The notes under the pieces were generated by a model, which did not search any database, was not told where the DNA came from, and was given only the letters and a program-made list of their open reading frames with translations. This document shows, one piece after another, positions 5,323 to 13,843 of a stretch of DNA of 64,000 bases. The translations under genes and the position numbers were made by a program. Source of the stretch: a virus; the IMG/VR virus record IMGVR_UViG_3300035661_000010. One strand, given 5' to 3'. Within the stretch, counting starts at the first letter, position 1. Every line of letters begins with the position of its first letter.

Positions 5323-5752
5323 CATGGGGCAAGCATGGAGCTGATGATGGATCATGAAACGTATGTGAAGATCCTCATGTTCGCGCCCTTCGCTATCGGA
5401 GCTGGCTTCGGGTTCTGTCTTGGCGCCATGGTCGAGAGGGTGAGGCAAGAGAAAGGTCGACGATGAGCTCGGGAGATGCCGACACCGTCCAGAAAGGACT
5501 CTGCTTCGTGTGCGGCGAGCTCTCGGAGAGCTGCATCTGCTCTGCGGGCGCATCGCGAAGAAAGGTGCTGTGCCCAAGCAGACCGGAACGTGTCCGGTAT
5601 GCAAGGAGCCGATCATGAGCAACCAGGAGCAGTACGAGATCTGGTCTGCTCGTGCCGCAGTGGAACGAGCTGCCGTCAGACATCCGCACGCACTGGATGC
5701 TGGTGGCGAAGATGTCCTTGTTGAAGTACAAGCCGGTCTGAAGGAGAAGAAG

Positions 5753-5986
5753 ATGGAACCGTCATTCGATTTTGGTGAAGCACTCAAGAAGCTGAAGGCA
5801 GGGCTCAAGGTCTCGCGCGCAGGGTGGAACGGCAAGGGCATGTGGCTCGCACTCCAGCAGCCAGATGCGAACAGCAAGATGTCGCTGCCGTACGTCTACA
5901 TGAAGACGGCGCAGGGAGATCTGGTGCCATGGCTCGCGTCGCAGACGGACATCCTCGCCAATGACTGGATAGCGGAGGCGATATGA
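5753..5986 (+). CDS. DUF2829 / Tad2-like protein
   Basis: FDFGEALKKLKAGLKVSRAGWNGKGMW...PYVYMKT..GDLVPWLASQTDILANDW; SD AAGGAG before ATG 5753 (an upstream in-frame start is also possible). Confidence 0.85.
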   Translation: MEPSFDFGEALKKLKAGLKVSRAGWNGKGMWLALQQPDANSKMSLPYVYMKTAQGDLVPWLASQTDILANDWIAEAI

Positions 5987-6969: not shown

Positions 6970-8259
6970 ATGAGCAAGGAAACGAGACCTGAAGGCGGAG
7001 CCACGCATGTCATCGACGCTGTTCCCAAGAAGTCCATGCGCGAGTTCATTGTGAAGGAGCTCGAAGACGACCGTCTGCCCGAGCAGTACCAGTTGGGTAG
7101 CAAGTCGGCACACCGCATCGAGTCCTATGAGAACCCAGGCAGTCTCTCGAAGGAGGACCTGATCGCGTTTGCAGAGAACTTGCGACGCGTCACAGGGGAT
7201 GTCGTTCACGAAGACGGGAAGATCCTGGATGTCCTGTACAAGTGGGTCGACCAGTCTATCGAGAGCGCGGAGATCGCACGCGACTCCTTGAACTCCACGC
7301 TTCGTCTCGTGAAAGGATGGGAGGAGAACATCGAGGCCGAGAAGGATTGCAAGAAGAAGATTGCGATGCTCAACGAGTACAGAGACCTCCTGACGGGAGG
7401 TAGCAATGCAGCAGAGGCTCGCATCGCCATCGGACTTGCTACGTACATCTCGACTCCAGATGGACAGTCATCGGCGATCGGTCTCGCTCGGTGGGCGGCC
7501 AACGGCTTCCCGCAGATCACCATGGGTCACAAGTACGCAGCGGCGCTCCTGGTGACGAACGTGACGGAAGAGGCGGTCGACTCCGCGCGACCTCCCTGGG
7601 ACGGGTTCGTGATCGAAGTGCCACCAGGATTGTTGCCCATCTGGCACCCCGAGCACGACCGGCACTATGACGTGAAGCGCATCATTGTCTCCCAGCACGC
7701 GAACCATCACACGAACGGCGAGAAGGCATGGATGTACGTCGCGATGACGGAGACGACCATGAACATGTGGCGCTTCGGCGTCAGCTCGCGCGAGCTGCTC
7801 CCGCCCATCGTCGCTGATGACAGGATGGAGAACTACCCGGCACTGATGCCGATGAGCGGCTCTGACAAGAGGGTTTCCTCGCTCATCGGTCGGCTGGTCA
7901 TCAATGTCTGTCTCGCGATGAGTGATCCGAGCAACGTGACGGAAGTCGGTCCGAACCACAGGGCGTACCGCCAGTCGGCGAGCCAGCGCACCACGCCAGA
8001 ACCTCTCCTACGAACGTTCCAGGTCGGCAAGCCCATCAAGCTCGACTTCCGCGATCGCGTGAAGGAATACGTGCTGCATGGAGATCGGGCCAAGAGCAGC
8101 ATCAACGTGCAGAGCCTCGTGTGCGGCCACTTCAAGATGCAGCCACACGGGCCCAAGAACACGCTTCGGAAGTTGATCTGGAGGCAACCGTTCTGGAGAG
8201 GGCCAGAGGACGCGCCGATCCTCGTGCGCCCTCATGAGATCGAAAAGGAGGAGGCATGA
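6970..8259 (+). CDS. phage hypothetical protein
   Basis: ~430 aa; C-terminal VCGHFKMQPHGP...RKLIWRQPFWRG motif of a type seen in uncharacterised phage proteins. Confidence 0.8.
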   Translation: MSKETRPEGGATHVIDAVPKKSMREFIVKELEDDRLPEQYQLGSKSAHRIESYENPGSLSKEDLIAFAENLRRVTGDVVHEDGKILDVLYKWVDQSIESAEIARDSLNSTLRLVKGWEENIEAEKDCKKKIAMLNEYRDLLTGGSNAAEARIAIGLATYISTPDGQSSAIGLARWAANGFPQITMGHKYAAALLVTNVTEEAVDSARPPWDGFVIEVPPGLLPIWHPEHDRHYDVKRIIVSQHANHHTNGEKAWMYVAMTETTMNMWRFGVSSRELLPPIVADDRMENYPALMPMSGSDKRVSSLIGRLVINVCLAMSDPSNVTEVGPNHRAYRQSASQRTTPEPLLRTFQVGKPIKLDFRDRVKEYVLHGDRAKSSINVQSLVCGHFKMQPHGPKNTLRKLIWRQPFWRGPEDAPILVRPHEIEKEEA

Positions 8260-12895: not shown

Positions 12896-13321
12896 ATGAC
12901 CATCCTCGCCTCAGAAGACAGGGTCCAGGTCCTGTACCTCGAAGACGACAAAGACGCGCGCGAGCTCGTTGTCGAAGTGCTCGAGAAAGAGGGCTACGAC
13001 GTCTGGATCGCCAACGACGTCGGTGCTGCGCTCGGGCTCCTCGCTAATGAATGGAAGCCGGATCTGATCTTGATGGATCAGGGCATGCCGTACCTGGTCG
13101 AATTCGGCATACACATGGAGAGGATCGAACAAGAGGCCCGCCGCCGCATCCCGACCATCGTGCTCGAAGTGTTTCCGAACAAGGTGACGCGAGTCGAGTC
13201 AGATGGCCGCGTTCAGAAGCCGTTTCGGATGGCCATGTTGCTCATGGAGATCGAACGAGTCTTCAGAGACGCGAAAGCTGGCGCTGTCACGGTACGGCCG
13301 AGTACATTGAAATCAACCTGA
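12896..13321 (+). CDS. stand-alone response regulator receiver domain
   Basis: VLYLEDD, PDLILMDQGMP (phospho-Asp), QKPF. Confidence 0.85.
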   Translation: MTILASEDRVQVLYLEDDKDARELVVEVLEKEGYDVWIANDVGAALGLLANEWKPDLILMDQGMPYLVEFGIHMERIEQEARRRIPTIVLEVFPNKVTRVESDGRVQKPFRMAMLLMEIERVFRDAKAGAVTVRPSTLKST

Positions 13322-13329
13322 GGCGAGTC

Positions 13330-13486
13330 ATGAAGAAGTTCTTGTGAATATGCATCCAGCCTGATCCTGGTCATCGGTGCGCTCTTCGGGTGCCCGCCAC
13401 GACCCAGGTACGTTGACGGAGTCGGCTGGTGGCCACGCCAGGTAGACGAAGAGGAAGGTTGGGTGATCGACCTGATCCACGAGTAG
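13330..13486 (+). CDS. small lipoprotein requiring a +1 shift at TGAA 13345-13348 (or a pseudogene)
   Basis: GAGG-N6-ATG AAG AAG TTC TTG TGAA TAT GCA... gives MKKFL-x-YASSLILVIGALFGCPPRP...DLIHE*. Confidence 0.6.
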
Positions 13487-13495
13487 TCGCAGCAT

Positions 13496-13569
13496 CCGTG
13501 CTTAGCTCAGTTGGAAGAGCAGCCGAACTTCAAGTCGGTCTGTCACGGGTTCGAGTCCCGTAGCGCGGT
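13496..13569 (+). tRNA. tRNA with 8-nt anticodon loop ACUUCAAG (UCA or quadruplet UUCA); CCA not encoded
   Basis: acceptor CCGTGCT/AGCGCGG; D arm GCTC-AGTTGGAA-GAGC; anticodon stem GCCGA/TCGGT; variable loop CTGTC; T arm ACGGG-TTCGAGT-CCCGT; U73. Confidence 0.9.
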
Positions 13570-13585
13570 CGAAGGAGAAAGCATC

Positions 13586-13843
13586 ATGTCGATAAAAGAG
13601 TTACGCGAGTCGGCGGAGAAGGTTCTTCAAGAGAGCCTGAAGACGGAGGCGCCTGGTCGTGGGCCCAAAGGCAGAGACAGCCACGATTACGAAGAAGTCG
13701 TCGACCAGTTTCGTGACGCCATCGTTCGTGTGGCGAACGAGGTCGCGAGGGACTATGGACAAGGTTCGTTTTCGAAGCAGAGTCTTCCTCACCTCACCGA
13801 GTTGTGTGAGTTCATCGCAACCAAGTGCGTCCAGGGTTCGTAG
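13586..13843 (+). CDS. leader-bearing hypothetical protein
   Basis: SD AAGGAG; MSIKELRESAEKVLQES. Confidence 0.75.
   Translation: MSIKELRESAEKVLQESLKTEAPGRGPKGRDSHDYEEVVDQFRDAIVRVANEVARDYGQGSFSKQSLPHLTELCEFIATKCVQGS

Follow-up and report, generated by a model that had tools for sequence, protein, structure and literature searches.

A phage tRNA with an eight-base anticodon loop beside a small frame with a matching UGAA: a candidate natural use of a four-base codon

Our subject is a tRNA gene with an enlarged anticodon loop, and the small reading frame just upstream of it, in the genome of an uncultured myovirus (IMG/VR record IMGVR_UViG_3300035661_000010). The window, by which we mean the whole stretch of 64,000 nucleotides (nt) that we analysed, is 59% G+C, has all of its genes on the + strand, and includes T4-type portal, prohead protease, capsid, and sheath genes. 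The small frame, which we call the leader, begins in one frame (frame 0), meets a UGA stop after five codons, and is open again if it is continued in the +1 frame. The leader and the tRNA have these parts:

13320..13323, + strand: Shine-Dalgarno (SD) sequence GAGG, 6 nt before the ATG at 13330, read from the sequence
13330..13344, + strand: frame-0 part of the leader, ATG AAG AAG TTC TTG (MKKFL), read from the sequence
13345..13348, + strand: TGAA, either a frame-0 UGA stop or a four-base codon that matches UUCA of the tRNA; identical in 5 of 5 independent contigs
13349..13486, + strand: +1 continuation, YASSLILVIGALFGCPPRPRYVDGVGWWPRQVDEEEGWVIDLIHE, 45 codons and then TAG (13484-13486); coding-like in codon usage, no homologue
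13388..13405, + strand: Gly-Cys-Pro-Pro-Arg-Pro, a candidate stalling motif, or a lipobox Cys and the start of a proline-rich mature protein
13496..13569, + strand: tRNA with an 8-nt anticodon loop and no encoded CCA (ARAGORN, Rfam, and reading by hand)
13527..13534, + strand: anticodon loop A-C-U-U-C-A-A-G, in which UUCA (13529-13532) is complementary to UGAA

The initial annotation of this DNA proposed that the tRNA reads UGAA as one codon and that the two halves of the leader are joined in this way. Its reading of the leader holds: the ATG is preceded by GAGG at a 6-nt spacing, four more codons, TGAA, and 45 open +1 codons follow, and the +1 frame has no ATG, GTG, or TTG (that is, no start of its own) before its hydrophobic stretch. 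The GAGG overlaps the TGA (13319-13321) of the receiver-domain gene just upstream, and 9 nt separate the end of the +1 frame from the tRNA. In the predicted +1 peptide, a basic N-region precedes a hydrophobic core of 13 residues (YASSLILVIGALF), L-F-G-C, and a proline-rich tail. Gly-Cys-Pro-Pro (GCPP) makes up codons 14-17 after the shift, with 28 further codons beyond Pro-Pro. We found no homologue of this peptide among 5.8 billion proteins. The spacer shows no stable RNA structure (z +0.94) and no promoter-like site, and it has no more terminator-like sites than the background.

The switch of frame coincides exactly with TGAA: the sequence is coding-like in frame 0 before it and coding-like in +1 after it. 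We scored codon usage by a log-likelihood ratio (LLR) that was trained on 65 long genes of the window. The five codons before TGAA score +7.2, and the 26 codons of frame 0 after the stop score -20. The +1 segment scores +14.5, as compared to 24 ± 13 for true in-frame windows of equal length and about -29 for off-frame windows; among open stretches of this length, only 0.5% of random ones and 1.3% of off-frame ones reach +14.5. Gene-like usage spans all 45 of the +1 codons and not just the first 20, and the G+C content at the three codon positions is 0.69/0.44/0.73, as compared to 0.61/0.45/0.75 in the genes of this phage. The proximity of the tRNA and the TGAA frame also exceeds chance. We count 9 occurrences in the 64 kb of a loose form of the pattern (an SD, a start, up to 10 codons, TGAA, and 40 or more open +1 codons), which gives about 0.06 expected occurrences within 200 nt on either side of the tRNA.

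The tRNA itself is regular apart from its loop. ARAGORN reports a tRNA of undetermined type at 13496-13570, and the full RF00005 model of Rfam aligns to it (49.2 bits, E = 2.6e-9), the sole insertion being one base in the anticodon loop. By hand, we read an acceptor stem of 7 base pairs (bp), a D stem of 4 bp, an anticodon stem of 5 bp (GCCGA/TCGGT), a T stem of 5 bp, and a discriminator T. The 8-nt loop is ACTTCAAG (RNA ACUUCAAG), or AC-UUCA-AG if divided around the four bases that are complementary to the proposed shift site, as in a quadruplet-decoding tRNA. In the Infernal alignment, the extra base falls at the 5' edge of the loop, and CUUCAAG is matched as a normal loop. We found no other tRNA in the window and no second one in the roughly 136 kb of this phage that we covered by walking through exact-protein look-ups. 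The tRNA and the adjoining frame had been described correctly in every detail.

It had been allowed that either of the extra bases might be an assembly error. We reject this on the evidence of five independently assembled contigs (JGI and Logan; four runs or samples), which agree at every base over as much as 6.4 kb (100% identity). The TGAA lies within all five, and the anticodon loop lies within the three that extend to the tRNA. The phage is present in the JGI samples 3300035182, 3300037010, and 3300035180 and in the runs SRR11723144, SRR11723145, SRR11727740, and SRR11727985. Two independent contigs (L051 and L052; Logan SRR11727740 and JGI 3300037010; L numbers are our own) both end at 13488, which is 8 nt before the tRNA and 2 nt after the stop of the +1 frame. 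The assembly graph seems to break at the tRNA here, and a repeat or strain variation may be the cause.

Other phages, too, have tRNAs with this kind of loop (N-Y-UUCA-A-N; in the window, A-C-UUCA-A-G), as we found by scanning collections of viral, metagenome, and genome sequences for the pattern. Nine further tRNAs share the 12 bases GA-ACUUCAAG-UC (DNA GA-ACTTCAAG-TC) but otherwise differ in their bodies (the carriers include L036, L033, L007, L005, L013, and L002), and one additional tRNA of the class has the loop ACUCUAAG. The scan of bacterial genomes yielded one class member, in a tRNA array of a metagenome-assembled genome from the Myxococcota, along with chance matches. In L002, L013, and L031, the ACUUCAAG tRNA lies directly after a tRNA-Glu(UUC), or one HNH gene after it.

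In four contigs (L036, L033, L007, and L027), a leader and a protein follow within 26-234 nt after the tRNA. The leader of these adjacent modules is a tiny open reading frame (ORF), M-x(1-4), that runs into TGAA (TAGA with the ACUCUAAG tRNA) and continues in +1 as C-x-R-[S/A/D]-P-P. Then comes a conserved protein of about 140 amino acids (K[ILV]KSLAAE...) that belongs to no Pfam or PHROG family. In L106-L108, the module is elsewhere in the contig than the tRNA, and a TGAA leader with RGPP in +1 again precedes the conserved protein. The module is present in 7 of the 7 class contigs in which it could be examined. Our literature searches found no description of this tRNA-leader-protein module.

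The conserved protein led us to 45 viral loci, and we tabulated the pairing of tRNA and leader for 33 of them:

UUCA loops (CUUUCAAU, ACUUCAAG/A, GUUUCAAU, AUUUCAAC), at least 17 loci: leader stop TGAA, continues in +1
UCUA (2 loci) or CCUA (1 locus, L094) loops, 3 loci: leader stop TAGA, continues in +1
Ordinary 7-nt C-U-CUA-R-A loops, 12 loci: leader stop TAG, continues in frame 0
7-nt UUA loop, 1 locus: leader stop TAA, continues in frame 0

We saw no exception to this match of loop, stop, and frame in the tabulated loci, which are not phylogenetically independent and are diverse in their tRNA bodies and leaders. The base after the stop is always A with the enlarged (8-nt) loops, and it is A, C, or G with the 7-nt loops. 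We take this comparison as good evidence that tRNAs with enlarged loops cause a +1 shift at a stop codon followed by A. The third codon of the module protein itself is the TAG in 6 of the 12 CUA loci, and in L089, L082, and L092, the +1 frame is fused to a real protein, i.e., the quadruplet gates that protein directly. By our definition, a leader of this family has an SD and a start, 1-8 codons (rarely up to 28) before TGAA, a continuation in +1, and an RxPP-type motif within about 15 codons after the shift. Those of the UUCA and UCUA types mostly continue in +1 into RAPP, RGPP, RSPP, or RDPP, which arrest ribosomes experimentally and are avoided in proteomes (PMC12992588, PMC10951233, PMC7897499).

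A few other features of these loci are worth recording. Just before the site, F recurs at -2 or -1, and T recurs at -1. After the quadruplet there is usually TGC (L036, L033, L058, L070, L075, L106-L108, and others), which gives TGA ATG in frame 0, or a stop with an immediate start of an ORF of 2-8 codons; the window has TGA ATA. In L033 (on the minus strand), the frame of the module protein starts with ATG TGA CCG TTC... and has no other canonical start, so either the same tRNA would have to read this UGA as a triplet, or the start would have to be an unusual one. In nine loci (L063, L076, L077, L083, L085, L087, L092, L093, and L095), the leaders are preceded by tRNA-like genes with the loops CUUUCAAU, ACUUCAAA, or AUUUCAAC. 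These have normal T-arms and CCA ends and were missed by ARAGORN, apparently through an irregular D-arm. Finally, in L094 (IMGVR_UViG_2974724996_000001), the loop GC-CCUA-AC faces TAGA, with a mismatch between the first anticodon base and the fourth codon base. Frame 0 of its leader reads IKKPP and then stops, and the +1 frame enters the module protein.

The locus in the window resembles the family module in its anticodon stem-loop, in having UGAA a few codons after the start, in its +1 continuation, and in its Pro-Pro. MKKFL is similar to the family leaders MTKFT, MMRFT, MKFF, and MTGFL, and its F is two codons before TGAA, as in nine family leaders; along with this F at -2, the U after the site is common to the window and the family. 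The leader of L093 reads ATG AAG TTC TTC TGAA TAT CTG AGC GGG TGT CCG CCG TAA (MKFF-UGAA-YLSGCPP, then the stop), and the window is similar to it even in nucleotides (ATG AAG AAG TTC TTG TGAA TAT ... GGG TGC CCG CCA). Relative to L093, two gains set the window leader apart: a hydrophobic stretch that separates Y from GCPP, and the 28 codons after Pro-Pro. Relative to the family as a whole, its leader is three to six times longer and has this hydrophobic insert. Within our proposal, its sequence makes the window leader a diverged member of the leaders M-x-x-F-x-[UGAA]-(C/Y)...[R/G]-x-P-P.

We think it probable that this tRNA is one of a recurrent class, phage tRNAs for which a stop codon and the A after it make up a four-base codon, and that the small upstream frame is its cognate site. 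Because loop, stop, and frame co-vary in other phages, the pairing of this tRNA with UGAA is likely, despite the ways in which the window differs. The core idea of the initial annotation, that UUCA of an expanded loop reads the adjoining UGAA with a +1 shift, is thus well supported by comparison with other phage loci. The annotation also judged slippage of the kind seen in prfB, the gene for release factor 2 (RF2), to be unlikely. The prfB site (CUU UGA C) is similar in that a +1 shift occurs at an early in-frame UGA and competition with RF2 sets the outcome. But prfB relies on P-site slippage on CUU_U, together with an internal SD-like element about 3 nt upstream, and the window has neither: UUG precedes the site and AAGAAGTTC is not SD-like. 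Also, the preceding codon varies across the family, in which a dedicated tRNA co-varies with the site. On sequence, we reject prfB-like slippage, which is indeed unlikely.

What would this tRNA do? Ribosomes certainly can start at the ATG at 13330. Given the SD and the coupling to the stop of the upstream gene, they would make MKKFL and then meet UGA-A. There, either RF2 would terminate translation, or pairing of UUCA with UGAA would insert one residue and move the ribosome to the +1 frame. A20 and C35 of the tRNA hint that this residue may be Arg. In +1, the ribosome would translate 45 more codons, through the hydrophobic stretch and Gly-Cys-Pro-Pro-Arg-Pro, and would stop 9 nt before the tRNA gene. 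The leader would then be a cis-acting switch that reports the activity of the tRNA relative to RF2, and the signal would be ribosomes that cover, and perhaps stall on, the 140-nt spacer before the tRNA and the following genes. We observe the anatomy of the locus, its agreement among assemblies, the coding-like +1 frame, and the co-variation across the family; from these we infer the decoding by this particular tRNA, any stalling at GCPP, and the regulatory output. If the pairing is accepted, then a cis-acting switch is the most likely output, if not quite one that we would bet on. A more elaborate version would be self-referential: the tRNA would compete with RF2 at UGAA in a leader just before its own gene, a four-base reading would carry ribosomes over the spacer and yield a membrane-targeted nascent chain with Pro-Pro, built like the arrest peptide of a secretion monitor, and the occupancy or stalling of ribosomes there would feed back on the tRNA and the downstream genes, via transcription or processing. 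This version seems doubtful to us.

Several observations weigh against our interpretation. The module protein is absent from the window and from the 136 kb of this phage (as searched with a 52-member profile; controls had E of 1e-28 or better). The order in the window is leader and then tRNA, which is the reverse of the family order of tRNA, leader, and protein. The motif is GCPP rather than RxPP, although GCPP also ends the leader of L093. TGA ends 66 of 84 genes (79%), and 19 of these 66 genes close with TGAA, which is not avoided, so the tRNA cannot be an efficient general decoder of UGAA. Either its level is low or the context of the leader favours it. Across the 136 kb, we found no convincing case of another gene that is split by TGAA, or of another TGAA leader; the remaining matches are inside genes in other frames. 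An 8-nt loop alone is no proof of four-base decoding: the yeast mitochondrial tRNA-Thr has one and reads triplets (PMC7609411), and phage tRNAs with enlarged loops have been noted before with no known frameshifting (PMC5009743). Finally, the two nearest complete phages (51% capsid identity) have neither the tRNA, nor the receiver gene, nor such a frame, so the locus is a lineage-specific acquisition. The phage has no diverged relative with this locus in which the TGAA site could be compared.

The initial annotation suggested that the +1 product is a small lipoprotein whose synthesis is gated by the tRNA. MKKFL-x-YASSLILVIGALFG/C... would be exported and lipidated and might be a superinfection-exclusion or spanin-like envelope protein, with the tRNA setting its timing or amount. 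The general form of the signal (the N-region, the 13-residue core, and LFGC) does fit, as do the proline-rich tail, the gene-like usage of all 45 codons, and the direct gating of a real protein in L089, L082, and L092. But a lipoprotein is not established: the peptide has no homologue in the search described above, the neighbours include no lysis genes and no exclusion-gene partner, and in L-F-G-C the F at -2 is not the usual residue and falls outside the strict lipobox consensus, [LVI][ASTVI][GAS]C. A looser PROSITE-type rule does tolerate F at this position. Furthermore, GCPP is shared with L093, a bona fide leader that ends right there. Since GCPP matches this arrest-type end in both position and sequence, the supposed lipobox Cys may rather be part of a stalling motif. 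The fit is at least as good for a cis-acting leader of the arrest type, and we consider the gated lipoprotein, which is the main alternative, to be unlikely; a small membrane-targeted or lipoprotein-like peptide is a possible output, either in addition to the switch or as an alternative to it.

It is less probable still that the frame is a relic or a coincidence. In this case, the tRNA would read a four-base codon or a stop, its real target would be the module protein with its leader, now lost from this phage or situated in a part of the genome that we have not seen, and the frame would be a decaying leftover that no longer has a function. The missing module protein, the atypical order and motif of the leader, and the restriction of the locus to one lineage would all be explained. 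But a relic would be expected to accumulate stops, and here the SD and the start are intact, the 45 codons are open with gene-like usage (p ~0.01), the +1 frame ends 9 nt before the tRNA, and the tRNA is fully canonical outside of its loop. The tRNA could also be a plain opal suppressor that reads UGA as a triplet (U33-UCA-A37, with a spare base on the 5' side of the loop), in which case the leader would be read straight through or not at all. This agrees with how Infernal aligns the loop and with the ability of enlarged loops to read triplets (PMC7609411, PMC5009743). We think it very unlikely, given that the loop has 8 nt rather than 7, that the 26 frame-0 codons past the stop look non-coding in their usage, that enlarged loops in the family go with +1 and 7-nt loops with frame 0, and that most genes in this phage terminate with TGA. 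Least credible of all is a tRNA that does not decode, such as a decoy or substitute for the target of a host anticodon nuclease or some other tRNA-like role, in which case TGAA would simply terminate a 5-codon ORF. We found no other tRNA in this phage, and genes that resemble anti-defence genes lie upstream (see below), but the family-wide match of loop, stop, and frame would be left unexplained.

The leader and the tRNA are flanked by the receiver-domain gene and by small genes of no known family. The immediate neighbours are:

12896..13321, + strand: CheY-like receiver-domain gene, 141 amino acids (Pfam PF00072, E = 6e-10)
13586..13843, + strand: next gene, 85 amino acids, no family; its SD, GAAGGAG, begins 2 nt past the tRNA

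The stop of the receiver gene is translationally coupled to the leader. The receiver protein, a stand-alone PF00072 domain, is confined to this phage (10 contigs), and the 85-amino-acid protein has no similarity to the module protein. Two genes that look like anti-defence genes lie in the early region, at a distance of 5-8 kb upstream from the tRNA: 5510-5986 is Tad2-like (PF11195) and 6970-8259 is weakly AcrVA2-like, according to precomputed Pfam matches on identical contigs. Farther along the same phage, about 112 kb past the start of the window (L125:14184-16550), is a ResIII-type helicase of 788 amino acids with Hom_end/LAGLIDADG matches, which suggest an intein or a homing-endonuclease insert. 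Among isolated phages, the nearest share only about 30% capsid identity and none is a close DNA relative of the window; there were matches at the level of the tRNA only, of which the one from Sinorhizobium phage Phosso proved to be an ordinary 7-nt CUA suppressor. Scans of viral contigs with the receiver protein or with the exact anticodon arm found nothing.

How does this compare with known systems? The laboratory +1 suppressor tRNAs (sufD, sufA6/SufB2, and sufJ) and the engineered quadruplet tRNAs, including evolved UAGN decoders (PMC4238358, PMC9094753, PMC4764823, PMC8481270), are similar in that one extra loop nucleotide, and four loop bases that match a four-base codon, go with a +1 shift. 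However, those tRNAs are mutant alleles or were designed, and they rescue frameshift mutations or reporters, whereas here we have a wild phage tRNA and a matched site. Also, the target in the window is a stop codon plus A, so there would be competition with a release factor. According to the papers searched, no natural quadruplet system is known (PMC9094753). The stop-recoded phages (crAss-like, Lak, and others) have suppressor tRNAs that read triplets, and the stop is recoded in many of their late genes (PMC10879173, PMC11210395). As in those phages, a phage tRNA would read a stop codon and control which phage genes are translated, but TGA is still the main stop codon here, and there is a single candidate site, with a change of frame.

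The other relevant comparison is to arrest-peptide leaders such as ApdA, ApdP, and ApcA, which use RAPP or RGPP, and the wider class that includes SecM and TnaC (PMC7897499, PMC10951233, PMC12992588). Like these, the module family has a short upstream ORF that ends in RAPP, RGPP, RSPP, or RDPP just before a gene, and the window peptide has a hydrophobic segment near its N terminus and then Pro-Pro. The window peptide does not have the RAPP-like core at its C terminus (R-A/G-P-P, RSPP/RDPP/RAGP; PMC12992588); instead it has F-G-C-P-P-R-P, which we view as a candidate motif. In the known leaders, the motif is in the ordinary frame and arrest is relieved by secretion or by a ligand, while here the motif would be reached only after a tRNA-dependent change of frame. 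None of the closest published systems combines a dedicated, wild-type tRNA with a matched four-base site.

If our interpretation is correct, then a wild phage tRNA and its matched UGAA would be nature's use of a quadruplet codon as a regulatory device, and arrest-peptide switches would gain a new kind of input, namely how active a dedicated tRNA is as compared to a release factor. A family in which the size of the loop predicts the frame would also offer ready-made, evolved pairs of tRNAs and contexts for synthetic biology. Within this family, the window is a differently wired case, with no module protein and with the leader before the tRNA, and it is therefore well suited to testing what the switch controls. 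And if the self-referential switch turned out to be true, it would be a natural genetic circuit that is built on a quadruplet codon.
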